Source of the DNA: Candidatus Binataceae bacterium
Lineage (GTDB): Bacteria > Desulfobacterota > Binatia > Binatales > Binataceae
Length of the DNA stretch: 64,000 nucleotides
Assembly: GCA_050011435.1 (NCBI GenBank)
Contig: JBEKJC010000005.1
Location: forward strand, 45,941 to 109,940
Direction of reading: 5' to 3'
Shown here: positions 46,960 to 64,000 of the stretch, in pieces
How the letters are laid out: each line of letters starts with the position of its first letter
Numbering within the stretch: the stretch's first letter is position 1
Notes under the pieces: model-generated
Database searches by the model: none
What the model was told of the DNA's origin: nothing
Seen by the model: only the letters and a program-made list of their open reading frames with translations
Program-made: the position numbers and the translations under genes

Positions 46960-48261
46960 ATGACTCATCGTGGACGAATCCTTGCCGATCGGATCATCGC
47001 GGCTCCGGTCGCTTTTCTGTTCAATGGCGTTGCGCGGATTCTGGGCGCACTAATGCGAAGAGACCATTCAATCGCGCCGTCCAACGTCAACCGGATCGTG
47101 GTCGCGAAACTCATCGGTATGGGAAGCATTCTCCAGGCCACGCCGCTGCTGAAGGCGCTGAAGCATCAATACCCGCATGCCCGATTAACGTTCGTGACAA
47201 TGCGATCGAACCGGGAGTTCCTGGACCGGCTCCCCGCCGTTGACGAAGTACTCACGCTCGACGACCGAAATCTCGTGGTGATGACGATAACGACGCTCCA
47301 GACAATTGTCGGGCTCATTCGGCAGCGTGCTGATCTGTACTTTGATTTAGAGGTATATTCCGCTTTCGCGTCGCTGCTGGCACTTTGGGCAGTGACGCGC
47401 AACCGGCTGGGGTTTTACCGACATAGCGTCGCCTTCAAAAATGGAATCTATACCCACCTGGTGTACTTCAACACTCGGATGCCGGTCCGTCAGTTGTACC
47501 TTCAGTTGGGACGAGTGGCCGGAGTTCCGCCGAGCCAACCGGAGAATATTGGACCGATACACATTGAGGAAGCCGATCGGTCATCTGTTCTCGCGGTTCT
47601 GTCTCAAAATACAGGATGGCACTCAGATCAAGCGTACATAGTGGTCAACCCGAACGCATCGGATCTGTTATTGGAGCGACGATGGCCCGTCGAGTATGTA
47701 GTCGAAGCCGTCACGAAGTTGGTCTCGCTAGGACATCAGGTGGCATTCATTGGAGCGCGCAGCGAGCTTCCGTATGTACAGAGTTTATTCGATCGCTTCC
47801 CGGCGGAGGTGCAAGTGCGCGTGGCAAATACCGCCGGGCGGCTGACACTGGGCGAGATGTTGGCGCTGTTGGACGGGGCCGCGTGCGTGCTTACCAACGA
47901 TAGTGGCCCGATGCACATGGCGGTCGCACTCGAGCGCCCGACAGTATGCCTATTCGGGCCAGCCAACCCCGAGCATTACGGTCAGGAATTGCCCAACGTC
48001 GCAATTTTCTACTCCCCGGTATTTTGCAGTCCGTGCCTTTACGAGGCCGATCAGCCTCCTTGCGGTGGCAACAACATCTGCATGCAGCGAATTAAGCCGG
48101 AGCCGGTAGTGCAATCGGTACTGCGGCTGCTCGGCATCCCGAATGCCGGTGCACAAGTACCTGCGCGGCCGGTTGCTTCCCCAGTCATCAGTGATGCGCC
48201 GGACGGCCGGCCGCTGGGCCTTGTGATTCGCGCGTCGCTGAGAAGCGATAGCAGAGAGTAG
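46960..48261 (+). CDS. glycosyltransferase family 9 (LPS heptosyltransferase-like)
   Basis: IVVAKLIGMGSILQATPLLKALK and TNDSGPMHMAVAL...CLFG are GT9 signatures. Confidence 0.8.
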   Translation: MTHRGRILADRIIAAPVAFLFNGVARILGALMRRDHSIAPSNVNRIVVAKLIGMGSILQATPLLKALKHQYPHARLTFVTMRSNREFLDRLPAVDEVLTLDDRNLVVMTITTLQTIVGLIRQRADLYFDLEVYSAFASLLALWAVTRNRLGFYRHSVAFKNGIYTHLVYFNTRMPVRQLYLQLGRVAGVPPSQPENIGPIHIEEADRSSVLAVLSQNTGWHSDQAYIVVNPNASDLLLERRWPVEYVVEAVTKLVSLGHQVAFIGARSELPYVQSLFDRFPAEVQVRVANTAGRLTLGEMLALLDGAACVLTNDSGPMHMAVALERPTVCLFGPANPEHYGQELPNVAIFYSPVFCSPCLYEADQPPCGGNNICMQRIKPEPVVQSVLRLLGIPNAGAQVPARPVASPVISDAPDGRPLGLVIRASLRSDSRE

Positions 48262-48282
48262 TGCCTCACCGTAGTAATTGTT

Positions 48283-48335
48283 CCAGTCCAATGGGCGGGT
48301 CGCGGCCAAGAAAAAGGCCTCGCCTGACGTTCGGG
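48283..48335. repeat. relic copy of the SDR gene 3' end (pairs with 33590-33635)
   Basis: A 25-nt identical core plus similar flanks. It lies 22 nt after the GT9 stop and marks the junction between the mobility module and the lower-GC cargo. Confidence 0.7.
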
Positions 48336-48344
48336 AAATCGCCC

Positions 48345-49985
48345 CTAACCACCCGCCGATCGCGTGTAAAAGACCCAGTCTTTTATGACCCGTGCCTGAT
48401 GGTATGGAGCCCACGCTCGACGGAAGCCCTCATCCCGCAAGAGAAGCTGCAGGATGTCAAAGCTGCGCCGCAGTTCAAAGGCATAACGGTCGTCGGCTGT
48501 TCGCACAGCAACCACCGCCGGCCTATATCGCTCGAGGTCTTCCTCAACCTGACGGGTCCAGAGTTGCCTAATCTCTTCCGCACGCTTGCGTTCGGCCAGC
48601 TTGCCCAGCGAAAGTCCGACAATTACCGGCACCATCCATTGTGCTGCCGTTCGGGATGACCATTGCGCATTTATCAATGAAACGGTCGGAAGAACAACAT
48701 CAAAGCCCCAGGCTGCGATTGCCAGGAAAGACCGTCCAGTCGCCAATTCAGCGGCGGTACGCGGGAACGGCTGAGCCATAAAATTGGAGCGAGTCCTGAG
48801 ACTCGACGTGAACCACATGGGCAACGTCACAATAACGCCTTGAAAGAGCAGCGCCATCACCAGGACCGCCGCGGCAATTCGTGGGACTTGATGCATTCGG
48901 GCCAGCGACGGCCAAATAGCCAGTGCCAGCAATACCAGAATCATCGACATCAAGATCAATGCTGGAATATTGTGATAATCCCAGCCTTTGTGCTGTGCGA
49001 CGGAGCATATTGACAGAAGTATAGCCGCAAGCGCCAAATAGCGTAAGAAAGAGCGAACTGTTTCGTCTATTTGAGCGAGTTCCCACACCACTGAGGCGGC
49101 TAGCACAAGGCCCAGGGGTGGCCAAAACGCCGCAAGAACAACAATCATCGGTTGGTTGAGAAACTTATAGGTATCGACCGCTAACCTCGCCACAGCGAAC
49201 CATTGCGGAAATACCAAAACGACTGTGCCCAGATATAAGATTGAAATGATGCTGAAGATGATGGCGTCGCGCCCAAAGAAAATGCGCCAACTCTGTTGCT
49301 CTATGCCGCGAGCTATGAGCATTCCGATCGGCAGCAGAACGAAGTAAGGTTTGATTAGAAACCCAACCGCCGCAATAGCGGCCGAACTTACGGAAGAGAA
49401 ACCCGGCAATTCCGAATCGCCATTCTCCTTCAGGGCAAACCGAAACAACCATGGACAAAGTAGAATCATCGCCAGATGTTCTCGCTGTCCAAATTGATAA
49501 CCCGGAAGGAAACATAACAGCACAGTATAAGCCAGCACGGCGATCGCCCCGGCAACTCGCCTCGCTCCAAACAGGTTGAGTAGCGAGCGGGAAACCTGCG
49601 CAATTGACCACAAAATCAGCAGGCAGACCCAAACGCTGAACACTACGTAAGTATCTAGTCCAGTCAGCGTAGAAAATGCGGCGCTCGGTGAAAGCAAGAT
49701 ATAAATAAGCGGCACATTGGGATCGAACACATCGTAATAAATATGTCCGCCGGCGATTAGTCGCTCTGTAGCTAAAAGAAACCAAGCGTTGTCGTGGTTT
49801 GGAACAATAGAAAAGGCATGTAGCCAGAAAGCTGCGAAAACAGTCACAGCTGTTTCACTTATAAGTAAAACCCGCTGAGCGAACGACAATGCAGGCACGG
49901 GCCACGGCGGATCCGAACCTGCCTGTCCCGGCAATGCACTACGAATGTGCTGGTTCACGACTTCCCGCGTACAGTTCGATAGCAC
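48345..49985 (-). CDS. large polytopic membrane protein, GT-C-like (ArnT/PMT-type glycosyltransferase candidate)
   Basis: 546 aa with >10 predicted TM segments. Lower-GC region. The assignment to the GT-C fold is inferred from architecture only. Confidence 0.5.
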   Translation of the reverse strand: MLSNCTREVVNQHIRSALPGQAGSDPPWPVPALSFAQRVLLISETAVTVFAAFWLHAFSIVPNHDNAWFLLATERLIAGGHIYYDVFDPNVPLIYILLSPSAAFSTLTGLDTYVVFSVWVCLLILWSIAQVSRSLLNLFGARRVAGAIAVLAYTVLLCFLPGYQFGQREHLAMILLCPWLFRFALKENGDSELPGFSSVSSAAIAAVGFLIKPYFVLLPIGMLIARGIEQQSWRIFFGRDAIIFSIISILYLGTVVLVFPQWFAVARLAVDTYKFLNQPMIVVLAAFWPPLGLVLAASVVWELAQIDETVRSFLRYLALAAILLSICSVAQHKGWDYHNIPALILMSMILVLLALAIWPSLARMHQVPRIAAAVLVMALLFQGVIVTLPMWFTSSLRTRSNFMAQPFPRTAAELATGRSFLAIAAWGFDVVLPTVSLINAQWSSRTAAQWMVPVIVGLSLGKLAERKRAEEIRQLWTRQVEEDLERYRPAVVAVRTADDRYAFELRRSFDILQLLLRDEGFRRAWAPYHQARVIKDWVFYTRSAGG

Positions 49986-50194
49986 TGGATAATGCTCCAG
50001 GGCTTACAAAACGCATAAAACCTTTCTGCCACCAGAATTCTGTGTTATCGAGTCATACCGGCGCGACCTCGAGCCTGATAAGCGCCCCGCCTTCCAATTC
50101 GCCAATGGCACCGCCCCCCTCCGCCCTCACGCGTTAACGCCGGTCCAGTAATGTCATATAATGTGTGAACCTGCCATAAGAGGCAAGTCGGTTC

Positions 50195-50236
50195 AGCTGG
50201 GTAGTGGGCGGTTTTAAAACCGCCCACTACCCAGCT
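50195..50236. repeat. 42-bp perfect palindrome AGCTGGGTAGTGGGCGGTTTT|AAAACCGCCCACTACCCAGCT
   Basis: Exact 21+21 inverted repeat in the 1.1-kb divergent intergenic region between 49985 and 51130. Confidence 0.9.
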
Positions 50237-50352
50237 ATCCCACACGATTTACGACGGAGGTCTGCGCTGCTAGTCTCGCGGATCGAGTTGGTCGCATGCG
50301 ATGGAGACGGAAGGAGCATTGCAGCCGTCGTTAGGCGGATTAGACTATCGAC

Positions 50353-51030
50353 ATGGTTCGACGCAGTTCCTCTCTCCCAGAAAAGGTCCTCTTCGCGAAC
50401 CCTACCCTATATAAGCTCAAGTGCTTCGTCATCGAGACAGTAATTTGGAAATGGCTCCTATGCGGCGTTTTCCGTCTGAAGCCTCGTCCTCTTACCGATA
50501 CGGAGCAGTTGTTCCGGGGACAGCGGGTGCTGATGGCCGCATGTGGGCCTGGTGACGTGAGCACGGGACCGTCTGTTGACAGCGCCTTCCAGGTGTTGCC
50601 TTGTCTCCACCGACGTTTGTAGAAACGTGCAAAAAAAACCGCCCAACATGGAACGTTTGCGGGGCTGACGCGCTGATGCTGCCCTTCGCTGACGGTGAAT
50701 TTGACATCTCGGTGATCTGCTCCTCCCTGCAACATATCCCAAGCAGCGCCGAACTCGTCTTAGCTGAGAGTTTGTGAATTTTTTGAAAGTGCAAAACATT
50801 CTAACCGAAATTGCTCAGGAAGTTTGGCTAATTCGGTACGTTTTCCGAATAAATTCACAAAAGCTAGTTGGCCAGCGTCACGCGAAGTTGCGTCGTATTT
50901 TCGGAAAGTGTGGTACCAGAAAGAGGGCTACTCCGCGATTGCTTCTGCTTGGTACGCCATCATCGACAGGGACGTGCACTACTACACGCGAGAGGAAGTT
51001 TTAGACAGCGCTGGCAGGCTCGGCTTCTGA
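50353..51030 (+). pseudogene. degraded class I SAM-dependent methyltransferase (three frame-broken segments)
   Basis: Motif I-like QRVLMAACGPGDVS sits in the 50353-50622 frame. A motif II/III-like LMLPFADGEFDISVICSSLQHIP ends at ~50775. A C-terminal segment spans 50824-51030. There is no continuous ORF. Confidence 0.4.
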
Positions 51031-51129
51031 GGTAGAGAGAGTCATGGAGCACGGGCCCGTCGGACACATGATATTCTGTGTGCTTCGCGTTTCTCGCCAG
51101 GTTGGGCAAGTTCGTGGCGCTGCACGAGG

Positions 51130-53064
51130 GTGATACGGAGAACTCCATTGAGTCCAGATTCTGCCGCTCAGCGAACCAACAATATCGGAAACCTCAACGT
51201 ACCGTCGGAGTGGAAAGCTGAAAGTGAGCAGTCGCCAGCTTCCGGGTCCACATCGTGGATCGCGCGTGGACTTATCGTAACCATTGCCAGTGCACTCGCC
51301 TGGTACACGTGGGGGCACTGGGGTGACTTTCAGGTAGATTGCGGGCGCGAGCTTTATGTGCCCGCAGCGATTGTTCACGGGAAGCTGCTGTATCGTGACC
51401 TTTGGTATATGTATGGGCCGCTGGCGCCCTACCTACAAGCATTGGCGTTCCGAATATTTGGAACCAGTCTTACCGTCTTGTACATGATCGGCCTTGCATT
51501 AACCATTGGTTCCGCTCTACTAATCTTCGAGATAACTCGCCAATTCGACTTGCCAGTTCCTGCTACGATTGCTCCTTCGCTATTCTTCCTCTCAGAGGCC
51601 TATCCGCCTTTTATATTTAACTACATGTTTCCATATAGTTACGCGGCGGCTATGGCATCGACGTTTGGCTTCGCTTGCCTTTATTTTGCGCTCCGATATT
51701 TGAGGACGGGCAGACAACTACATTTAGCTTTGACGAGTTTCCTGGCCGGCCTGGCACTGCTCACGAAAATCGAATTTGGCATCGCTTGTCTGGTGTTATT
51801 GGGCTTCTTGCTAGTCGTGCATCTCATCATCGAGCGCTCTTTTCAGTCCGTGAAACAAGATGTGTTTTGCTGCTTCGCTGGACTCTCGCCGGCATTGATG
51901 ATCTACGGATGGTTCATTTGGAAACTTAGCGCGAAGTTCATATTCCTCGACAATTGGATAGCTACCCCTGGAACCTATATGATGCGAACATTCGGCAAAC
52001 GAATGATGGCATTTGTAGGTTTTCGATTCTCATTGTCCGAATGGACCTTTGACGGCTATACGGTTCTGTTCTCAATCGGGTTGTGGTATATCATCGCAGC
52101 CGCTGATGCCGCCGTGATCTCCCGTCTGCAGGTTCGATCGCGATTATATGTGATCACGATAGTGCTTGTTGACCTGCTGCTGGCGTTAATGGTGCGAATG
52201 CACTCCGGCGAAGCCACGAGTGTCGTGACTGCTATCCTTTTCCAGATGATGTGTCCACAGGGACTTTTTCTCCTGGGCGGTTTCTTCCTGCTGCACGGTC
52301 TTTGGAAATGGCGAAGGCAACTGACGTTCAGCTTACCACTTGCTGAGGCTGCGCTCAGTATTTATGCGACGGTGGTCAGCATACGCGTAATGTTGGAAGT
52401 GGGGCCGTGGCGTGGGGGCTATGCAGTATTTTTCAATATTCCGCTGTTTATAATATTCGTAATAGTGACAGTAAGGGTTGTTCGTCGGGCAAGCCTATCA
52501 CTCGACACAACGCGTTCTGAGAGGCTGGTTGGCAGCATGGTCAGCGTGAATATTCTTTTGTTATTTATTATGCTGTTTCCCAAACCCGGGGTATTGTCAA
52601 CCTCGCTGACTACCGAATATGGAACATTCTATACGCACCCGGATATCGCTGTTCTGTATCCCCGGATTATCTCTTTTATGAAGACACACACTCGGAACGG
52701 GAGAGATATCCTGGTCTTGCCCGAACCGCCGAGCCTGTACGTTTTCGCCGGAATGGAGGCCCCGAGCCGCTGGTATTCGTTGCTGCCTGGTTATATCGAT
52801 CCTGCGAAGGAAGGAGAGTTCATTCGTGATCTTGTGGCAAGCAATGTGAGTTACGTTCTGATATCGAATCGCGCGGTAAGCGAATATGGTGTAGACAGCT
52901 TCGGCATTGGTTATGATCAGCCGATTTATAAATGGTTAATGGACAATTACCAGAAGGTCGATCAGTTTGGACCGCTTGCTGACGAAAGTCACGTTCCATA
53001 TATAATGTCGGTTTATGCCAGGAAATCTGCAGTGCTAGGACCATTCCATTACGATATACATTGA
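51130..53064 (+). CDS. large polytopic membrane protein (GT-C-like candidate) with C-terminal soluble domain
   Basis: 644 aa with ~14 TM segments followed by a ~170-aa hydrophilic domain. GTG start. Confidence 0.5.
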   Translation: MIRRTPLSPDSAAQRTNNIGNLNVPSEWKAESEQSPASGSTSWIARGLIVTIASALAWYTWGHWGDFQVDCGRELYVPAAIVHGKLLYRDLWYMYGPLAPYLQALAFRIFGTSLTVLYMIGLALTIGSALLIFEITRQFDLPVPATIAPSLFFLSEAYPPFIFNYMFPYSYAAAMASTFGFACLYFALRYLRTGRQLHLALTSFLAGLALLTKIEFGIACLVLLGFLLVVHLIIERSFQSVKQDVFCCFAGLSPALMIYGWFIWKLSAKFIFLDNWIATPGTYMMRTFGKRMMAFVGFRFSLSEWTFDGYTVLFSIGLWYIIAAADAAVISRLQVRSRLYVITIVLVDLLLALMVRMHSGEATSVVTAILFQMMCPQGLFLLGGFFLLHGLWKWRRQLTFSLPLAEAALSIYATVVSIRVMLEVGPWRGGYAVFFNIPLFIIFVIVTVRVVRRASLSLDTTRSERLVGSMVSVNILLLFIMLFPKPGVLSTSLTTEYGTFYTHPDIAVLYPRIISFMKTHTRNGRDILVLPEPPSLYVFAGMEAPSRWYSLLPGYIDPAKEGEFIRDLVASNVSYVLISNRAVSEYGVDSFGIGYDQPIYKWLMDNYQKVDQFGPLADESHVPYIMSVYARKSAVLGPFHYDIH

Positions 53065-53155
53065 CTCGGGTGCGCGCCCGAGGCGTTCGCGCGCACCTGT
53101 GTGGCTCTTAGTTCGCAGTTCGTAAAGACGTAGAGATCTCCGTAGCCAACATCAA

Positions 53156-53869
53156 TCATGATCGTTTCCGGACCACGGCCTGGATCTGCGCGCGCGCATC
53201 CTTGAGCGTTTGGTTTATCGGAGCGCCGAAACGGTATTCGATCGTTTCCAGAGCGTATTCCATTTTACCAACCCACCGGTTTAGTTCGGATGAAGTTTGG
53301 CTCCTAATGCTACCGCTCAATCCTGCTTTGCGTGCCCGCCTGAATTGAATGAGGAGACGACCGAAAGGAGTAATGTGGTTCCGATTTAGTTCATGGTTGT
53401 ACCCCTCGTCTTGCACGCGAATGTCGACTATATCTGCGCAGGGAAGTTTTTGAAGAACTGTCTTCAGGTCGTAAGAGACCGGCGACCATGTTGAGTGCTT
53501 TCCGAAACGGAAAGTGGCCTTATGGTCTGGATTAAAGATAGACGGCCAGATTCCCTGCTCGTAGAGATCCTCATCCGGAACTACGATAATGAGATGGCCA
53601 TTTGGCTTTACCAATGACCACCATTGTGAGAGCGGCCTGCGCACATCGTTCATATGCTCTGAGCAATTGGAACTATGAACACAATCGTATTGCACTTCGG
53701 TTGAGAGGAATTCCGTGATTCGTTGTGCATCTCCGTGCTCGAAGTCAAACGGTCGGGCATGCGGCACGATCAAATCCGCACCGCACCCGATGTCGAGAAC
53801 AGATCTCGAGAAATATTTCTCATGGAAGTCAGCGCCGCGAAGTCGCCAGGTCTTCGAAGATTCAAACAT
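53156..53869 (-). CDS. class I SAM-dependent methyltransferase
   Basis: VLDIGCGAD (motif I) and downstream acidic motif II/III residues. Confidence 0.7.
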   Translation of the reverse strand: MFESSKTWRLRGADFHEKYFSRSVLDIGCGADLIVPHARPFDFEHGDAQRITEFLSTEVQYDCVHSSNCSEHMNDVRRPLSQWWSLVKPNGHLIIVVPDEDLYEQGIWPSIFNPDHKATFRFGKHSTWSPVSYDLKTVLQKLPCADIVDIRVQDEGYNHELNRNHITPFGRLLIQFRRARKAGLSGSIRSQTSSELNRWVGKMEYALETIEYRFGAPINQTLKDARAQIQAVVRKRS

Positions 53870-54053
53870 TGCAGAACCTCCCTGAGTGCGGGGCTAATCG
53901 AGGCTGCCCTGAATCTGAGCCAAGTGTTGGGCAGCATGCCACAGCCTCTGACCGCTCTGAGAGTTCGCCGATCCCAGCTACCCCGGCGGTCCGATAATAA
54001 ATTGAGCTATCTTGGCACAACCCCTTGAAGGGACCCTCAGCCTGCGGCCTAAT

Positions 54054-56279
54054 TTAACGAATATATGTTGGCGGGTTGCGCTCTCCGACGGCCCGGCTGC
54101 GCACCAGTTCGGCGAGGCCCGGTAATTGATCTCTATCAATCACCATTAAAAGGATCCATTTCCTCGCGTCCGGACTGCTTGTGCTGATTGAGCGGGGCGG
54201 CGATATCTCGACTCTCTTCACCAATATCCGGTACACCGTGGCGAGCCGTTCCACGACTTCTCGAGAGCTGAGCACCCCGATAAGAATTTGCCTGTCGTTG
54301 AACGACTCGAGTACCATGCCGTTTTGCGCAGGCGTGGCGCGGTCATATATCGACACACCCGAAACCCACAACGGTGGTAGAAGCCCAAGCCGCTGCACTT
54401 CAGACGGGCTCAGCCCCGCAGGACTTAGCCCGCGCGCGGTATATTCGCTTGCTGCGTTAATCAAAGCGTCAAGGCGTTCGGTGGCGACAGCTTCTTCCTC
54501 CTTTCGCGGATCATGACTTATGTAACTGCTCAAACGAGATAGCGGCACTTCATAGATGGAAACACCACCCACCTTAATCGGGTTCAAAGCAAGACTCGCG
54601 AAGGTCGCGTTTATCGCTCGCTTCTCGTCCGGTTCGAAATGGCTGCGCTCCGTCGTCGGAGGACCTTGGTCGAAAACCAATCTCCACATGTGCGCTCCCT
54701 CGTCAGCAACGATCACCTTGCTAATATGCTTCTGAACTAAAAACGTCTTCAGTGCCTCATCTGAGTGTGGAATTACCGTTAAATTATACAGACTATCCGT
54801 AATCGCATAACGTGCGAATTCCCTTGGGAGCGGAGTCACGCTAACCCATCCACCTGCCATCCGAAAATACAGATGAGTATTCACCAGCCAAATATCACTA
54901 TTCCCCTCGTCCCCGTATGGAAGCATTAAAACGATCTCACCTGGTGACAGATATTGTTTGTACATATCTGTCGCGAAAAATGCTGGTGTGTCAACGTCAG
55001 TCGTCCAGAAAGCAGCACTGGGGTTAGGTAAATAGCATAATATGATTGCAATCGCGCCAGCGATTCGGACCGTCGGTTGGATTGTTTTGTCGGCCAACCA
55101 GAGACTCGCAATTATCGCGAAAATAAGGAAAGCATACAGAGCAAAACGCGCCGGTAGTACTTCGTCGCTAAGAGGCAGGCGAGAAAGTATTGTCCACGGC
55201 ATCGGTATTGTCAGATGGGTAGTAATGCGAAGTATCGGGCCAAGCGAAGCTAAGAGAATTATAATTAGCAAGGCCAGAAGTAGCCTAGTCTGTGCCACCA
55301 TCCAATGTCTGCGCGAGTAACTCCACACTATGAGGATTAATGGGAACGCAACGTACGCTCCAGTTTCTTGAAGGTTAAATCCACCGCAGAGCTTCCTGGC
55401 AAAGAGGGAGGTGCCGAAACAATTAGTGGGTGAAGGAAAAAACATTCCAGATACATGAATTGAAACAGCTGTGGCCAGGCCAGTTGGAAAGTCCTGAGGT
55501 CCAAACACGAAAAAGTAATATAGATACAGACTAAGCAAGACTGCAGTAATAATATATGCGAACGAAATGGGGAATATTAGAACGATCAGGCGATCGCGCC
55601 ATTGAGGCGCTATCCAGTAGCCGATCGCAAAGGCTGCCCAGCCGAATACTGTTGCAGTAGCGAATACCTCTAGTGAGCATGTGGCTTGAATTGTCAAAAG
55701 AAGGCACAGCATTATTATGAATCGACGGGAAGGCCAGATACCGTCTATTCGGAGCAGTATTACCATTAAAATGATAGGAATCGCGAAAACCATCAATGCG
55801 TGAAGATGGCCCAACATTTGCCCGAGCATGTATGGAGAGAACCCGAAAATATAGCCGCCGACAAAAGCCGACCTTGATGACGACGATAAATACCGACAAA
55901 CAGTGAAGCCGGTCCACGCAGCAATCGCCGGACTTACGAGTATCATCAAATTGTAGGTTGCTAGCGGTCCGAGATACTCGGTCAGCGGAGAGGCTAAGAT
56001 ACCAGCGAGTGGGACGAATGTCGTACGAGCGAGATTTAGTCCACTCGGAGCCCAGACAATGTTCGTAAAAAATGGATTTAAGCGATGAAGTATTGCGTAC
56101 TTCCACCATTCCAAGAAGAAAATGAACAAGCCCGGGTCGGTGCCGATTCCGATGTAGCGGTCCGAAAGATGGCCGACCAGGCCGCGCCCGAAGAACAGAA
56201 AGGAGAGAGCAAGATAGATTGCGAACGCTCCGAGACCGAGGCGGTTACCCAGGCTTTCTTGAATAGTTTTAGATTTCAC
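54054..56279 (-). CDS. large membrane protein, paralog A (N-terminal ~13-TM domain plus C-terminal periplasmic domain)
   Basis: 741 aa. N-terminus LSFLFFGRGLVGHLSDRYIGIGTDPGLFIFFLEWWKY is shared with paralog B (roughly 45% identity overall). Confidence 0.5.
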   Translation of the reverse strand: MKSKTIQESLGNRLGLGAFAIYLALSFLFFGRGLVGHLSDRYIGIGTDPGLFIFFLEWWKYAILHRLNPFFTNIVWAPSGLNLARTTFVPLAGILASPLTEYLGPLATYNLMILVSPAIAAWTGFTVCRYLSSSSRSAFVGGYIFGFSPYMLGQMLGHLHALMVFAIPIILMVILLRIDGIWPSRRFIIMLCLLLTIQATCSLEVFATATVFGWAAFAIGYWIAPQWRDRLIVLIFPISFAYIITAVLLSLYLYYFFVFGPQDFPTGLATAVSIHVSGMFFPSPTNCFGTSLFARKLCGGFNLQETGAYVAFPLILIVWSYSRRHWMVAQTRLLLALLIIILLASLGPILRITTHLTIPMPWTILSRLPLSDEVLPARFALYAFLIFAIIASLWLADKTIQPTVRIAGAIAIILCYLPNPSAAFWTTDVDTPAFFATDMYKQYLSPGEIVLMLPYGDEGNSDIWLVNTHLYFRMAGGWVSVTPLPREFARYAITDSLYNLTVIPHSDEALKTFLVQKHISKVIVADEGAHMWRLVFDQGPPTTERSHFEPDEKRAINATFASLALNPIKVGGVSIYEVPLSRLSSYISHDPRKEEEAVATERLDALINAASEYTARGLSPAGLSPSEVQRLGLLPPLWVSGVSIYDRATPAQNGMVLESFNDRQILIGVLSSREVVERLATVYRILVKRVEISPPRSISTSSPDARKWILLMVIDRDQLPGLAELVRSRAVGERNPPTYIR

Positions 56280-58447
56280 TTCTCGTGCGGTGTCGCGGCT
56301 GCGGAACCCAGACGGGTTGGATCAAACTCCAGCAGTAAAATCCATTGGGTGCTCTCCGCCCAGATCGCTACCGGCATCAGCGGCGAAACTTCGACCTTCT
56401 TCGCGAAAGGCTTGTAGATCGGGGCGACGGCTTCAACTGTATCGCGCGCGCCCATCACTCCGACCAATACATCTCCATTATTGACAGATGAGAGCACCAA
56501 GCCATTTACCAGGGAGGCTCGCGGATCGAGGGCATTGACCCCAGAGGCCCAGTGCGGCGGAAGAAGTTTCAAGCGTTGGGCTTCAACCGGACTCAGGTCA
56601 GATGAAGGATGACCATCTGCAAGATACTTCTGCGCGGCACTGATAAGCGCGCCGAGTTGAACGGCCACCATTCGCCTTTCGAGAACGCGCGGGTCCACGT
56701 TCTTGTAGGCGTCCAGTTTCTCGAGTGGAACCTGGTAGAAAGAGACACCGCCAATATGTATGGGTGCGACGCCCAGCGACGCGAACAACGAACGAATTAC
56801 TATTCTTTCGTCGGTAGTGAACTCGGTACGTTTGGGAAACTGCGGTCCGGGGTCATTGTTCTTTATCCATAAGTGCGCGCCGTCGTCTGCGACGACGATC
56901 GAGTTAACCTTCTTCTGAACCAGAAAGGCCTTGAGCATTTCGCCCGCATAAGGAAAGTCGGCCAAGGTGTAGAAGCCATAGATCGTTGGAAAGTACGGCA
57001 GATACTCCCTTGGAATTGGCGGCTGGCCTACATATCCGCCGGCCATGCGGAAATAAAATCCACTCATAGCCTGCCAGATATCGCCAGTGGCGAATCCGCC
57101 ATAGGGAAGAATCAAAACATTATCGTCGGGCGCAATGTAGCGTCTATATATTCGAGCCGAAAAGAAAGCCGGTGCGTCAACAGGCGTCGTCCAGTAAGAT
57201 GCGCTTAAATTTGGCAGCGTGAAAAATACCACGGCGCCGGCGCCTGCCATTCGGAGAGTCTGCCGGATGGAGCCATCGCTGAGCCAGAGACTCACCACTA
57301 TACCTAGAATCAGAAAGCAGTAAACCGAGAATCGCTCGGGCATAGCTTTGTCTATCAGCGGCAAATGCGCTGCGATTGCCCATGGTAATGGAATTGGTCG
57401 AGATGCCGGGATGCGTAATTCCGATCCAAGCGAAGCAACGGTGACAACCACCAGAAGCATCACGAGAAGTCGCGTGCGCCAATCGTGCCAATGGGCGTGC
57501 GCGAAGGCCACAACAATTAGAAGCAGCGGCAGCGCGATGTATGCTCCGGTCTCGTAAATGTTACTTCCACGGGACAGTTCGTGAACCAGATGGATTGTTC
57601 CAAGCAGAGTAGTGGTCGTCGGAATTAGAAAATTGGAAGGGTAAACCGAAACGAACTGTCTCAATCCACCTGGAAGCGGCAGATGGCCGAATGCGTAAAA
57701 GTAGTAAAGGTACGGACTGAGGATAATCGCACTCGCGACATACGCGCATGAAGTTGGAAGGACGAGACCTTGCAGACGTTCGCGCCATTGGGGCGCCGTC
57801 CACCATGCGATCGCTATCGCAGTGCCGCCAAATAGGGTAGCCGTAGCCACCGCCTCCGGCCAGCACAGGAAGAGAGCGACTATCAAGATGCTCAATGTGA
57901 TCGCGAAGTTGCGTGTGCTGATTTCCTCGTTCAGCCGCCGCAATGTCACTAGTACCATCAAGGGCACCGGAAACATCATCAGTACCGTTAAGTGGCCGAG
58001 TAAGTGACAGAGCATCCACGGAGAAAAGCCGAAAGCATAGCCGCCAACGACAGCCGCCCAGAACGAAGAACATAGATACCGGCAGAGAAGGAAGGCGGTC
58101 CATGCTGCGAGTGCCGGGCAGAGCAGCACCAACAGGTTGAAGGTCGCGATGGGACCCAGGGTTGCAGTGAGCGGGATCGCGGCGATTCCAAAAAGTGGTA
58201 TGAAGGTTACCCAAGCCAGGTTGGCGCCGCTTGGCGCCCATTGCAGATAGGTGAAGAACGGGTTTACGTGATGAGTGAAGACGTATTTCCACCATTCGAG
58301 GTAGAAAATGAAAGCGCCCGGATCCGTACCGATTCCTATGTAACGGTCGGAAAGATGACCCACCAGACCACGGCCAAAGAATAGAAACGAGAGAACCAGA
58401 TAGATAAAAAGTGGACTGACCTTACTATAATCTCGCCTACCACACAT
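56276..58447 (-). CDS. large membrane protein, paralog B
   Basis: 723 aa in tandem with paralog A, overlapping it by 4 nt. Same architecture. Confidence 0.5.
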   Translation of the reverse strand: MCGRRDYSKVSPLFIYLVLSFLFFGRGLVGHLSDRYIGIGTDPGAFIFYLEWWKYVFTHHVNPFFTYLQWAPSGANLAWVTFIPLFGIAAIPLTATLGPIATFNLLVLLCPALAAWTAFLLCRYLCSSFWAAVVGGYAFGFSPWMLCHLLGHLTVLMMFPVPLMVLVTLRRLNEEISTRNFAITLSILIVALFLCWPEAVATATLFGGTAIAIAWWTAPQWRERLQGLVLPTSCAYVASAIILSPYLYYFYAFGHLPLPGGLRQFVSVYPSNFLIPTTTTLLGTIHLVHELSRGSNIYETGAYIALPLLLIVVAFAHAHWHDWRTRLLVMLLVVVTVASLGSELRIPASRPIPLPWAIAAHLPLIDKAMPERFSVYCFLILGIVVSLWLSDGSIRQTLRMAGAGAVVFFTLPNLSASYWTTPVDAPAFFSARIYRRYIAPDDNVLILPYGGFATGDIWQAMSGFYFRMAGGYVGQPPIPREYLPYFPTIYGFYTLADFPYAGEMLKAFLVQKKVNSIVVADDGAHLWIKNNDPGPQFPKRTEFTTDERIVIRSLFASLGVAPIHIGGVSFYQVPLEKLDAYKNVDPRVLERRMVAVQLGALISAAQKYLADGHPSSDLSPVEAQRLKLLPPHWASGVNALDPRASLVNGLVLSSVNNGDVLVGVMGARDTVEAVAPIYKPFAKKVEVSPLMPVAIWAESTQWILLLEFDPTRLGSAAATPHEK

Positions 58448-59230
58448 GGTTGCAGCCCAACTCCCACCACCTCAGGAGCACCATGATGCCAAAGAAACAT
58501 GCCAATGTCAGCGGCGGCACCAGCAGACTGAATGGGCGGTGCCGTCTCGGAAGCCGGCCACGGAGAGGTCGGCAACTGCGCGTCTCTGCATTCGGGCTAT
58601 GCCGAAGCCGTGGCGCTCCTCGATCCCGTATTGGCCGGTCGTGCGACGGCGAGAATCCGCGGAGGGCTTCGTAAATGTGATCCGCTCTCGAAATCACCCG
58701 TCAGGCTTCTACGCTCTCTTTTAAATCTCGTTTACAAATCAGCCGGCCATGTCGAGTGGGATCCCGGCGATTCCAAAAAGTGGTATGAAGGTTGACCAGG
58801 CCAGATTGGCGCCGCTTGGCGCCCATTGCAGATAGGTGAAAAACGGATTTACGTGATGAGTGAAGACGTATTTCCACCATTCGAGGAAGAAAATGAACAA
58901 TCCGGGGTCGGTGCCGATTCCAACGTAGCGATCCGAGAGATGTCCGACCAAGCCACGTCCAAAGAATAGAAACGAGAGAACCAGATAAATAAAAGGCGGA
59001 CTGACCTTACTATAATCTCGTCTACCACACATGCTTGCAGCCCAACTCACGCCACCTCAGGAGCCCCATGATGCCAAAAAAACATGCCAATGTCAGCCCG
59101 GTCGCACCTGCAGATTGAGTGGGCGGTACCATATCGTGAGCTGGCCAAAGAGAGGTCGGCGTCGACCCGGTCCTGCGTGCGGGCTATGCCGAAGCCGTGG
59201 CGCTTCTCGATCCCGTATCGGCCCGGATTG
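58166..59230. repeat. tandem duplication: ~480-bp segment (58166-58645) repeated at 58751-59230, ~90% identical
   Basis: Read directly. It spans the first ~280 nt of paralog B plus ~200 nt of upstream sequence. Confidence 0.75.
58739..59032 (-). pseudogene. 5' fragment of paralog B created by the tandem duplication
   Basis: Encodes MCGRRDYSKVSPPFIYLVLSFLFFGRG...FIPLFGIAG, nearly identical to the first ~90 aa of paralog B. It terminates at the copy boundary. Confidence 0.55.
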
Positions 59231-59336
59231 CCGAGCTATCCCCCTGTCACTCCTAGCGGCCTATGTTTCAGTGTATTGGTTCGCCGCCGACTACGAAACA
59301 ATATGGTTTCTGCATGCGCTGGAAGTTTTCGCCACG

Positions 59337-59678
59337 ATGACAATCTTCGGCCTCATTGCAATTGCGCTGGGCGTGGCGGTGAGCCCGAGTGAGAGCAGAC
59401 GAATCGTGAGTGCGGTACTTCCGCTCGCGATTGGGCACATACTGGCGGCCGTGATCGTGATTTCAACGAGCTATTTCGAGCTGGGCCGGCTTTCTTTCTT
59501 CAAGGCAATCGCGATCAGATTTCCATTCGACCAATTTGAGTCCGATACCTACTTCGGGCCGGTCCTAATCGCGATGGCGGCGCTCTACGCCCGTCGCCAT
59601 TGGCACGGGCCGTTCGCCCGGATGATGATTGCCGCGCTGATCATAATCGCGGTATTCTCGCTTGGCACACCCTCATGA
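59337..59678 (+). CDS. small 4-TM membrane protein (possible GtrA-like flippase component)
   Basis: Four hydrophobic helices. The start is ATG 59337 or GTG 59271. It overlaps the start of the next gene (ATGA). The function is a guess. Confidence 0.35.
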   Translation: MTIFGLIAIALGVAVSPSESRRIVSAVLPLAIGHILAAVIVISTSYFELGRLSFFKAIAIRFPFDQFESDTYFGPVLIAMAALYARRHWHGPFARMMIAALIIIAVFSLGTPS

Positions 59679-60916
59679 AACGGTTAGCGCTCGCCCTGCT
59701 CTGGTCGATGGCCGGCCTCTGGGCGTTGGCTATATTTGGCAACGTCGCTGCGCGCGTGAACCGATGGGACTTTAGTCATTACTATCTGTCGGCGCTGGCA
59801 CTGCGGCAGGGCGCGAATCCATACCTGATCGACCTCAACTCCGTACCAGGCGCAGCGGGAATGGAGCTAGGATTGATCAATCACGCCAGCTACCCACCAA
59901 CCTTCCTGTTGTGCTTCGAGCCGTTTACCCTGATGCCCCCGGTGCCAGCGTACTGGACCTGGTTCGGATTGAACCTGGCGGCTCTCACAGTGGCGTTAGC
60001 GATGCTGCTCGGCGGGCGAAGCGAAATCGATTTTGTCACCGGCGCATCGCTGGTCGCGTTGGCGATTCTATACCCGCCGCTCTCGAACCATTTCAAGTTT
60101 GCACAGACTCAAATCGTGATTCTGCTGCTTCTGGTCGTAGCGATGCGGGCGCTAGCCAGCGGCAATGATCCGCTCGCGGGCCTGATACTGGCTTTCGCCG
60201 GGCTGCTTAAGGTGTTTCCGCTGGTTATGGCTGGATACTTGATCGTGGGCCGGCGGTGGCGAGCGCTCGGATGGATGATCGCGGGTTTGGTGGCCGGGGG
60301 CTGCCTCACCCTAGCCTTGGTTGGTGTAAAGCGGAGCTTCAGTTTCATAGGTCAGGCAAGTTTCCTGACCAGCCGACACTGGTATGACCAAGCTGCAAAC
60401 CTCTCAGTGAGCGCCACCGTGTCGCAGGTGTTTTGGTATACATTTGGAAATTCGCTAAGTTGGCCACTCGATCTTCTCCGTCACACAGCAAGCGCAGCAA
60501 CCGAATTCGGTCTGTTGGCGCTCACCATACGGGCGACCGCGTCGCGCGCGGAGCGTGGACAGGATCCCGATTCGAGCGCATTCGCACTGTGGGTTGTCGC
60601 TATGATCCTGCTGGCACCAACGGCGTGGCTCCACTACCTCGTGCTGCTGTTCATCCCGTTCGCGCAGATCACGATCGCAGTCTGCGGTGAACGCGCAAGC
60701 CGGCGAACGGTCCGCATGATGATCGCGAGCTACATCATTATAATTGTCGGAATGCTCACACTCGGGGCCTTCGAGTCATCCTTCTCCGAGCAGCTGGTGA
60801 TTGCCTTCAGAGAGTTGGCTTTCGTATCGCTCGTAATGGCCTACATTGCGACATACTGGTTCGTGCGCGATGCGCCGGGTGAAATGCAGGCTACGGGTCC
60901 GGCTGCAAGCCGTTGA
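59675..60916 (+). CDS. DUF2029 / GT87-like polyprenol-phosphate-sugar-dependent glycosyltransferase (membrane)
   Basis: ~410 aa with multiple TM segments and the central GLLKVFPLV motif region typical of DUF2029 transferases. Confidence 0.6.
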   Translation: MKRLALALLWSMAGLWALAIFGNVAARVNRWDFSHYYLSALALRQGANPYLIDLNSVPGAAGMELGLINHASYPPTFLLCFEPFTLMPPVPAYWTWFGLNLAALTVALAMLLGGRSEIDFVTGASLVALAILYPPLSNHFKFAQTQIVILLLLVVAMRALASGNDPLAGLILAFAGLLKVFPLVMAGYLIVGRRWRALGWMIAGLVAGGCLTLALVGVKRSFSFIGQASFLTSRHWYDQAANLSVSATVSQVFWYTFGNSLSWPLDLLRHTASAATEFGLLALTIRATASRAERGQDPDSSAFALWVVAMILLAPTAWLHYLVLLFIPFAQITIAVCGERASRRTVRMMIASYIIIIVGMLTLGAFESSFSEQLVIAFRELAFVSLVMAYIATYWFVRDAPGEMQATGPAASR

Positions 60917-62558: not shown

Positions 62559-64000
62559 TTAGCGATGCCCCGATCCCGCGTGACCGCCGCCGTGTCCCGC
62601 GCCCATACCCGGATGCGGCGCCGCGATACCGCCATGGAATCCCTGGAACGCATGCATCTCATCCCGATGCTGCCGTTCGAGCGCGCCCACCTGCGCAGCG
62701 TGCTGGCGTGCAAGCTCTCGTTGCTGCAAGATCTGATTGCGCGCGGCGGCCTGCTCCTGTTGCGCGCGTTCCTGCTCGAACCGCTCCAGTTGGGCGTTAT
62801 GGCTGTTCTCAAGCTCCTGCATCTGCGCGGTGTGAGCGCGCTCGACTTGCTCCCAGTCGCTACTGCCGATCGGTTCGTTATTGGCGGATTTTGCACGTTC
62901 GACTTCGAGCGACCGGAGCAGCTCGTTGTTCTCCCGCTCGAGCGCCTGTAACTGCTCATTATGCTTTTGCGCCGCCACCTGCTGCTGCTCGAGGCGCGAG
63001 CGATCGAGTTCCTGCACCTGCTGCGACTGCCGCCGCGCCAGTGCGATCTGACTCTCCTCGTGCTGATGCTCGAGTGATTGCTCCATTTGCTGCGCCCATT
63101 CCGGATGGCGCGCGCGCGCAACGGCCGGCTGCATCTGCGCCCACCAGTTCACATCGCGCCATCGATGTTGCTGGTCGTAATCGCCAACCCATTCGGGATG
63201 ATGCTGCCGCGCCCAAGCGCCATCCCGCTCCATCCACCATTGGTCACTGTGCCACACGCGATGATCGTCGAAGTCGCCCCACCACAGCGGATGATATTGC
63301 TTCACCCAATCCGGGTTATGCGCCCACCACCAGCCAGCCAGCCGCCAGTGGTGATTATCGTCGAAGTCGCCCCACCACTCCGGATGATGCATACGGCACC
63401 ATTCAGGTCGGTTCTGCCACCACCAGCCGGCCGGATACCAGACGCCCTCGTATGGTTCGCCCCACCATTCGGGATAGTTAGTGCTCATCCAATCTGGCTG
63501 GAACTGCCACCACCATCCTGCCGGATACCAGACGCCCTCGTATGAGTCCCCCCACCATTCCGGATGTTCATCGAGCGCCGTCTGTCGCTGAAGGGTCCAC
63601 CACCAACCCGCTGGATACCAGTTATTCTGGTAGTAATCGCCCCACCATTCTGGATGGTGCAGCCGAACCCAGCTCGGGTAGTTCTGGCACCACCAGACCG
63701 CGGGATACCAGGTGTTCTGATAATAGTCGCCCCACCATTCCGGATGATGCGCGCGCGACCAGGCGGGCCGGTTCTGCCACCACCACCATGCCGGACGCCA
63801 TACGCGAGCGTCGTCGAAGTCGCCCCACCATTCAGGGTGATGCTGCCGCAGCCAGTCCTGATGGTTGGTCGCCCACCACGAGGCGTCGTGCCAGACGTGG
63901 CCGTCGTCGTAATCACCCCATACCGGCTCAGGAGGCACGTCACCCCATTGCGCCTGCGTCTGTTTTGCCCCGATTATCAAAATCAGGGGCACCGCCAATA
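62559..64000 (-). CDS. Trp-rich tandem-repeat protein (N-terminus outside the window) with a Gln/Glu-rich coiled coil and a Gly/His-rich tail
   Basis: At least 9 repeats of ~29-30 aa with consensus HHPEWWGD(Y/F)(D/Y)xxxxWxPAGWWWQNRPxWxRx (DNA period 85-94 bp). This is followed by ~130 aa of Q/E/R-rich heptad-like sequence and GGHAGSGHR at the C-terminus. The N-terminus begins in a hydrophobic stretch at the window edge. Confidence 0.6.
   Translation of the reverse strand, partial: LAVPLILIIGAKQTQAQWGDVPPEPVWGDYDDGHVWHDASWWATNHQDWLRQHHPEWWGDFDDARVWRPAWWWWQNRPAWSRAHHPEWWGDYYQNTWYPAVWWCQNYPSWVRLHHPEWWGDYYQNNWYPAGWWWTLQRQTALDEHPEWWGDSYEGVWYPAGWWWQFQPDWMSTNYPEWWGEPYEGVWYPAGWWWQNRPEWCRMHHPEWWGDFDDNHHWRLAGWWWAHNPDWVKQYHPLWWGDFDDHRVWHSDQWWMERDGAWARQHHPEWVGDYDQQHRWRDVNWWAQMQPAVARARHPEWAQQMEQSLEHQHEESQIALARRQSQQVQELDRSRLEQQQVAAQKHNEQLQALERENNELLRSLEVERAKSANNEPIGSSDWEQVERAHTAQMQELENSHNAQLERFEQERAQQEQAAARNQILQQRELARQHAAQVGALERQHRDEMHAFQGFHGGIAAPHPGMGAGHGGGHAGSGHR

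Follow-up and report, generated by a model that had tools for sequence, protein, structure and literature searches.

Several described systems resemble in part the tryptophan-rich repeat protein considered here, which is encoded at one end of a 64,000-nucleotide stretch of DNA from a Candidatus Binataceae bacterium (assembly GCA_050011435.1, contig JBEKJC010000005.1, positions 45,941 to 109,940; the whole stretch is called the window below). PcoE and SilE are periplasmic metal sponges, and in the PrP octarepeat PHGGGWGQ, His and Gly amides bind Cu(II); the window protein carries HGGG motifs in a disordered Gly-rich tail, a likeness at the motif level only. Choline-binding repeats (CW_binding_1, PF01473) are likewise short, aromatic-rich tandem repeats of exported bacterial proteins, with a β-hairpin that carries conserved W and G. 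The hendecad proteins, i.e., LEA group 3, apolipoproteins and right-handed coiled coils, and also the perilipin 11-mers, share with the window protein a 3/8/11 periodicity and a long, very polar predicted helix. The EAGR box of Mycoplasma terminal-organelle proteins (PDB 4dcz) is a short motif similarly rich in aromatics and Gly. Finally, SmbP of Nitrosomonas europaea is periplasmic and binds Ni(II), Cu(II), Zn(II) and Fe(III) (PMC7137794). Like PcoE and SilE, it resembles the window protein, itself probably periplasmic, in being repetitive, His-rich and helical, with no catalytic domain.

Here we show, by sequence comparison, that the window protein belongs to a new Binataceae family of Trp-rich repeat proteins composed of three modules: a Trp array, a polar helical region built on 11-mers and a His-rich tail. 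The protein has a signal peptide followed by well over the minimum of five units that we take as typical of the family, an 11-mer helical region and a His-rich tail, and it aligns end to end with the family members P0001 and L002-L063 at 33-57% identity. Units throughout the family follow the pattern HPxWWGD...W(Y/R)PAxWWW...PxW. The gene and its parts, with the basis of each assignment in parentheses, are as follows.

62559..64000, minus strand: coding sequence of the exported Trp-rich repeat protein (listed open reading frame, intact orthologues, substitution rates)
63951..64000, minus strand: C-terminal part of a Sec-type signal peptide (alignment with orthologue signal peptides)
63108..63929, minus strand: nine Trp-rich units, amino acids 24-297 (unit extraction and alignment)
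63840-63929, minus strand: repeat unit 1, 31-like
63747-63839, minus strand: repeat unit 2, 31-type
63657-63746, minus strand: repeat unit 3, 30-type
63567-63656, minus strand: repeat unit 4, 30-type
63477-63566, minus strand: repeat unit 5, 30-type
63387-63476, minus strand: repeat unit 6, 30-type
63294-63386, minus strand: repeat unit 7, 31-type
63201-63293, minus strand: repeat unit 8, 31-type
63108-63200, minus strand: repeat unit 9, 31-type
62643..63107, minus strand: Gln/Ala/Glu/Arg/His-rich predicted helical region, amino acids 298-452 (AlphaFold2 and autocorrelation)
62562..62642, minus strand: Gly/His tail, amino acids 453-479, GFHGGIAAPHPGMGAGHGGGHAGSGHR (AlphaFold2 confidence below 50)

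The open reading frame (ORF) occupies 62559..63998 of the minus strand, with 479 codons and a stop at 62559-62561, and stays open up to the window edge, which cuts off the 5' end of the gene. The protein as read begins LAVPLILIIGAKQTQA, followed directly by QWGD. The hydrophobic N terminus that the first-pass annotation saw running beyond the window is thus the hydrophobic core (h-region LAVPLILIIG) and AxA cleavage region (c-region AKQTQA) of a signal peptide, with cleavage predicted before QWGD. Alignment with orthologues places ~10 N-terminal residues of this signal peptide outside the window, so that the full exported protein would have about 490 amino acids. In the orthologues the signal peptide is complete, with the n-h-c organization and AxA site of a Sec-exported protein cleaved by signal peptidase I (M(T/S)RIK..LLAA...L.LA.PAFA, with Q as the next residue), and the start is preceded by Shine-Dalgarno-like GGAGG or GGGG. 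The signal peptide and cleavage site were assigned by eye. Neither a lipobox Cys nor a twin-arginine motif is present in the signal peptide, and we found no other sorting signal in the protein. Judged by this peptide the protein is exported and, because its signal is of the Sec type only, its default location is probably the periplasm or cell envelope and not the surface. The window also holds a heptosyltransferase-family (GT9) gene, which suggests that the host is a diderm bearing lipopolysaccharide.

Relatives were collected by pattern scan and tblastn from one genome per species (185,579 species), yielding 64 loci at 33-57% identity over near-full length. In about 58 of them the frame used here reads without a break from signal peptide to stop. 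An upstream interruption of the ORF, which the first-pass annotation had named as something that would undo its reading, does not occur; the orthologues supply the missing start and the frame is intact. We compared the window protein with its six closest relatives (L002-L007) and L009, and the ratio of nonsynonymous to synonymous substitution rates (dN/dS) was 0.14-0.20 for the repeats and 0.35-0.49 for the helical part, with saturated dS. It is clear from these comparisons that the Trp-rich ORF is a real gene under purifying selection, and the low dN/dS in that frame rules out a spurious ORF or a wrong frame.

Many database copies of the repeat array change frame repeatedly, WWWQ giving way to MVVAV or GGATSTT (L001/L064 10001-11400; P0005, P0006, P0008, P0010-P0012, P0017, P0022, P0024 and P0029). 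Several frame-shifted genomic loci sit in “MFD” contigs of metagenome-assembled genomes (MAGs). Because we take these contigs to be long-read assemblies, the shifts are likely homopolymer errors; some of the shifted copies may be genuine frameshifts or pseudogenes.

The array consists of nine consecutive units of 30 or 31 amino acids (90 or 93 bp), in good agreement with the nine or more imperfect repeats of ~29-30 amino acids first reported. Their mean pairwise identity is 47.7%, versus 8.6 ± 0.8% in composition-matched shuffles, and Tandem Repeats Finder detects period-90 arrays at 63416-63785, which correspond to the central, least diverged copies. The extraordinary Trp richness noted at first sight is also real: Trp makes up 20.4% of the repeat region (56 of 274 residues) and 12.3% of the whole 479-residue protein. 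A consensus built with a unit hidden Markov model (HMM) from 426 full units of family members separates two unit types, HP[ED]WWGDyYqGvWYPAxWWWQxQPDWVRx[HN] for the 30-type and HP[DE]WWGDFDDxHvW[RH]PAxWWWQxxPDWVRx[HN] for the 31-type, which alternate in blocks across the family. By the same model, family members have 5-11 units, most commonly 11. Positions H1, P2, W4, G6, W13/14 and W26/27 are near-invariant, along with W18-19 in the 30-type or W20 in the 31-type, and each unit contains ~6-7 aromatic residues. H1 is conserved at 96-100%, giving one invariant His per unit, and in 31-type units D9 is conserved at 100% and H12 at 75%. The order of unit types in P0001 is similar, though not identical, to that in the window protein; since unit order is largely shared, much of the array appears to have been inherited as a whole, not recently amplified.

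AlphaFold2 modeled the repeat region alone (26-row alignment) with a mean predicted local distance difference test (pLDDT) of 82.8 and a predicted template modeling score (pTM) of 0.60; in the full protein (5-row alignment) the repeats reached pLDDT 72-84. In every unit the predicted chain runs from a short turn (HPE) through a β-hairpin (W-G-D-F / loop / W-R-P) to two helices of seven residues each, first A-W-W-W-W-Q-N and then P-x-W-x-R-x-H. When the predicted secondary structure is mapped onto the sequence, the hairpin loop of 31-type units has five residues and bears D-D-x-H-x, and 30-type hairpins are predicted to close with a tight two-residue turn. The array is thus predicted to be a solenoid-like, Trp-cored repeat of hairpin, helix and helix.

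The ~155-residue region that follows (20% Gln, 14% Ala, 11% Glu, 10% Arg, 7% His) was modeled as two long helices, 299-373 and 379-454, at pLDDT ~55-70. It was first described as a Gln/Glu/Arg heptad region; its polar and predicted helical character stands (amino acids 298-452), but the heptads do not. Hydrophobic autocorrelation in the window protein and 57 family members peaks at lags 3, 8, 11, 14, 19 and 22 and dips at lags 7 and 18, so the periodicity is hendecad, i.e., 11 residues. In the 57 family members lag 11 collects 466 matches versus 61 at lag 7, and in the window protein alone lag 7 is the minimum, with 1 match. We therefore rejected a heptad coiled coil; a coiled coil of some kind is possible in this region. 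ΦExxH motifs recur here in the window protein (LEHQH, LENSH, LERQH), and the pattern [LVFIM]E..H is found 209 times beyond the last repeat unit, in the helical region and tail, across 61 family proteins. Helical-wheel reasoning on the common 11-mer F-E-R-Q-H-A-x-Q-V-x-A would place the His between two hydrophobic positions on one helix face.

The protein ends in a Gly/His tail, as noted at first (...FHGGIAAPHPGMGAGHGGGHAGSGHR), with 5 His in 27 residues, and this tail is predicted to be disordered. Among the 61 family proteins, 44 have a His within the last 3 residues and 29 contain HGGG or GGGH motifs, and His accounts for a median of 11.7% of the last 60 residues. Tail sequences vary by clade, yet almost all are His-rich: tails of the Binatus clade carry 2-4 copies of GGGGGGH[VAP]EAPH, and those of other clades are HAE-rich or Pro/His-rich. 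Some Binataceae genomes encode two paralogues (L020 and L063, L015 and L065, L054 and L056, L041 and L055, L016 and L059) whose tails differ within the genome, one of the Gly/His type and the other HAE/Gln-rich.

How does this protein compare with the described systems? The first-pass annotation recognized no known family in the repeat and set it apart from the ~20-amino-acid choline-binding repeats, and both judgments hold. A Pfam-A hmmscan (24,736 models, E ≤ 10) returned nothing on the repeats, including the choline-binding and other Trp/Gly repeat models, and only two chance matches elsewhere, FUT8_N_cat and Sds3, both in the helical region; an NCBIfam scan at E ≤ 10 likewise gave no match on the repeats. 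All hits in Pfam and NCBIfam scans of the protein and ten distant relatives (FUT8, Sds3, TopJ, TIGR04529 E 0.06-0.2) were set aside as sub-threshold noise. Searches of PDB chain sequences with the protein, the unit profile and a small-family profile found nothing below E 0.8, and fold comparison against the PDB gave no match to the predicted repeat structure. The EAGR box 4dcz ranked second in Foldseek and was rejected (E 5.5, probability 0.04, TM 0.08/0.25). These searches show a repeat undescribed in sequence and a predicted fold with no solved counterpart.

The choline-binding unit is a hairpin only, of ~20 amino acids in a ββ-solenoid, whereas the window protein has units of 30 or 31 with two short predicted helices, has invariant His, Asp and Pro positions and lacks a wall-binding context. 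With no CW_binding_1 match at E ≤ 10, and given the unit length and predicted helices, we rejected membership in that family. Homology to SmbP or PcoE/SilE was not found, as there is no similarity to any PDB chain sequence; moreover, the window protein is five times larger and its most conserved module, the Trp solenoid, has no counterpart there. The tail differs from the PrP octarepeat in lacking Trp and in its spacing, and across clades only the His richness is conserved. The 11-residue periodicity of LEA group 3 and apolipoproteins is found in the window protein and 57 family members, but no LEA_4 or apolipoprotein HMM matched in Pfam at E ≤ 10, and the region is Gln/His-rich, not Lys/Ala/Thr-rich, and is joined to an unrelated solenoid.

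The family was found almost only in Candidatus Binataceae (phylum Binatota). The 64 loci come from MAGs labeled Candidatus Binataceae, Ca. Binatus or, under older labels, “delta proteobacterium” or “Proteobacteria”; the MAGs with older labels stem from the same series of soil, peat and palsa samples as the Binataceae ones. A single locus is exceptional in being labeled Acidiferrales. The family is also rare, with only 6 relatives among 5.8 billion clustered proteins, and the unit HMM found 56 proteins among 1.84 billion cluster representatives, mostly fragments of the same family. We found nothing on it in the published literature on Trp-rich repeats and Binatota.

The unit itself extends somewhat further. 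Rare secreted proteins of ~95 amino acids, extremely His/Trp-rich, consist of two 31-type units (e.g., P0038 and P0052; also P0034, P0035, P0040 and P0043-P0046, and loci L066-L073). They form a separate family, keep GDYDxxHxWH...HHPxW...HHPEW and lack the 11-mer helical region. A profile of these small proteins retrieved only 35 in 5.8 billion proteins; they are labeled hypothetical or unnamed in their sources and match no Pfam or NCBIfam family. Because the unit occurs in these two-unit proteins as well, the Binataceae protein appears to have arisen by expansion of an older small module into an array. In other relatives (P0031, P0047, P0053, P0056, P0059/P0063; L065 10290-10829) 2-4 units follow a different helical module at the N terminus, which is made of repeated “NPxLLYNPxxxxxHPxLxxFLxxHP” helices with a sub-threshold likeness to the hemophore-related TIGR04529 (E 0.06-0.2). 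P0059 has in addition a C-terminal (A)PPMHRMPPVAV tandem repeat.

Since the gene neighborhood is not conserved, we read the function from composition. Apart from the Trp, Gly and Pro that build the fold, the conserved residues are His and Asp; all three modules are His-rich, including tails that are unrelated between clades; and the protein is strongly acidic, with a pI of 5.4 and a net charge of about −29 at pH 7 for the mature form, which contains 59 Trp and 35 His. The distant two-unit relatives, very rich in His and with the pattern given above preserved, point the same way. On these grounds we propose cation binding, and our preferred reading is a periplasmic divalent-metal binder or a scaffold switched by metal or pH. 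We give this a probability of roughly 0.3, no higher because the argument comes from composition and gene context does not support it. In this picture an elongated and strongly acidic rod, studded with His, would sit in the periplasm or cell envelope and bind divalent transition-metal cations of the Cu, Ni or Zn type, serving either to buffer or soak up metal or as a scaffold that assembles in response to metal or pH. Candidate ligands are the invariant His where units join (H-P-E/D), the D-D-x-H in the five-residue hairpin loops of 31-type units, the ΦExxH of the helical region, whose His would lie on the same helical face as two hydrophobic positions, and the C-terminal HGGG and H-x-E-A-P-H motifs. 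The tryptophans would build the fold and not the binding site. The ΦExxH 11-mers and the His-rich tail could plausibly work in the manner of SmbP and PcoE/SilE.

Several observations weigh against a metal-binding role. The central 30-type units lack the D-D-x-H loop, and the conserved His could be purely structural. We compared neighbors by all-against-all clustering of ORFs from the 64 loci and the window; no neighbor is conserved family-wide, metal-homeostasis genes included. Neighbors are mostly housekeeping or unrelated genes that differ between clades: RecG-, NUDIX-, CarB-, ferredoxin- and ABC-like ORFs by sequence reading, and enoyl-CoA hydratase, luciferase-like (LLM) oxidoreductase and glutathione S-transferase by Pfam. 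Metal operons were also sought, and not found, at seven loci of two-unit relatives, where the only recurring neighbor is a Gly-zipper_YMGG small lipoprotein gene. The sole metal-related neighbor seen, which lends the metal reading weak contextual support, is a NicO-like permease (277 amino acids) with a long His-rich loop, HAHAHTHDGDLHAHPHVHVHAHEHDEDAAHEDH. It lies on the opposite strand, between 33 bp and a few kb past the Trp-rich gene on the downstream side, in 22 Binatus loci (e.g., L010, L012, L014, L016, L017, L019-L021, L024-L027). Its score against Pfam NicO, the nickel/cobalt transporter family, is 27.4 versus a gathering threshold of 27.7 bits, and the link is limited to one syntenic clade with variable insertions between the two genes. 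With neighbors not conserved across the family, the gene looks monocistronic.

Within the Binatus clade (about 22 loci) the order is FAD-monooxygenase, the Trp-rich gene, variable insertions, NicO-like permease and epoxide hydrolase, an arrangement that reflects synteny within one clade. About 150 nt ahead of the start codon (e.g., L012:9850-9982), the clade also has a near-invariant promoter (−10 TATAAT, TTGTTG-like −35) and a near-invariant 5' untranslated region (UTR) of ~95 nt (…GGCTTGCGATGCGATTGNCTTGAC…GCATCGATG), and sequence further upstream is unrelated (L010, L012, L014, L017-L021, L024, L025, L027, L029, L031, L032, L035, L036, L042). A CGAUGC/GCAUCG hairpin could enclose the Shine-Dalgarno sequence in this UTR. 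The upstream element has no Rfam match, shows no covariation and is absent from other clades; the corresponding region of the window's own gene lies beyond the window edge.

In the window itself, the genes downstream of the Trp-rich gene encode an LLM oxidoreductase, GT87, PMT_2-like and GT9 proteins and two large membrane proteins with no Pfam family; none recurs at other family loci, except for LLM paralogues. The sequence downstream of the gene shows neither a terminator-like nor a promoter-like site. Several of these genes form an envelope glycosylation cluster (46960-60916), interspersed with the large uncharacterized membrane proteins, and the cluster is not shared with other loci bearing the Trp-rich gene.

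46960-48261: GT9 heptosyltransferase-like gene
51130-53064: PMT_2/ArnT-like gene
53156-53869: methyltransferase gene
54054-56279: gene for a 741-amino-acid paralogue of the 723-amino-acid membrane protein, no Pfam family
56276-58447, minus strand: gene for the 723-amino-acid membrane protein, no Pfam family
59600-60916: GT87 gene

Around the membrane-protein genes (56008-59223) a segment of ~470 bp recurs 585 bp further along as a copy with 80-88% identity (58169-58468 versus 58754-59053 and 58512-58636 versus 59099-59223, and also 56008-56219). The segment comprises the 5' end and upstream region of the 723-amino-acid protein gene, and its copy leaves a truncated ORF of 103 amino acids (58739-59050). 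The 5' end of the neighboring 741-amino-acid paralogue shows 72-75% similarity.

Among the alternatives to metal binding, a glycan- or peptidoglycan-binding envelope scaffold, the idea put forward in the first-pass annotation, fares best, and we regard it as rather unlikely. Here exposed Trp would stack on sugar rings, much as in choline-binding or carbohydrate-binding repeats, and the helical region would serve as a spacer or oligomerization stalk. At 20% of the repeat region, there is more Trp than so small a unit could bury. The protein is also exported, and the window gene lies near the GT87, PMT_2-like and GT9 genes of envelope glycosylation. However, those neighbors are common to no other locus, no carbohydrate- or cell-wall-binding family in Pfam-A or NCBIfam was matched, nothing anchors the protein to surface or wall, and the conserved His/Asp and the His-rich tails would be left unexplained.

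Doubtful, in our view, is an envelope stress protectant or chaperone-like hydrophilin whose 11-mer region folds on membranes or upon drying, with His as a pH charge switch in acidic soils. The very hydrophilic Q/A/E/R region does have a clear 11-residue periodicity, and the net charge of the mature protein, about −29 at pH 7, would flip to about +11 at pH 5. Peat, palsa and soil are the sources of the host MAGs, and the small relatives adjoin Gly-zipper_YMGG (OsmB/SlyB-type) lipoprotein genes in L068, L069 and L070. Those same relatives, however, entirely lack the 11-mer region, there is no LEA or other Pfam match, and selection is strongest on the Trp solenoid (dN/dS 0.14-0.20) and weaker on the 11-mer region that such a protectant would depend on (0.35-0.49).

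The aromatic solenoid might instead be a periplasmic carrier or sink for hydrophobic or aromatic molecules (alkanes, pigments, quinones, tetrapyrroles), as its extreme aromatic content would allow, although we see little chance of this. A published account of the Binatota predicts both alkane degradation and pigment production for the phylum (PMC8262859), and the N-terminal module of the distant relatives has the likeness to TIGR04529 described above. That hemophore match, however, is sub-threshold and falls in a module that the window protein lacks, and the family has no linked genes for transport or catabolism. More speculative still, and very improbable, is that the array is a new fold with a continuous stacked Trp/Tyr ladder and regular His/Asp metal sites, which would relay charge across the periplasm without heme, by electron or hole hopping, or serve as a conductive scaffold switched by metal; the idea starts from the ~6-7 Trp/Tyr per 30-residue unit over 9-11 units. 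Finally, we give almost no credence to a non-functional ORF (spurious in GC-rich repetitive DNA, in the wrong frame or a decaying pseudogene): all three reading frames are open across the repeats and many database copies are frame-shifted (P0005, P0006, P0008, P0010-P0012 among others; L001/L064), but the frame conservation and in-frame dN/dS given above led us to reject it, and AlphaFold2 is confident on the repeats.

The finding settles no standing biological question. What it adds is a new sequence repeat and probably, judging by the predicted structure, a new fold. At ~20% Trp, the array would rank among the most Trp-rich natural domains and may interest structural biologists and protein designers. 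If the metal-binding reading is true, the family would be a new class of periplasmic metal buffer with a minimal mature form of ~65 amino acids, represented by the two-unit relatives, that is possibly useful as a tag. For the organisms themselves, the protein is an apparent lineage marker of the Binataceae, a widespread and uncultured soil lineage.

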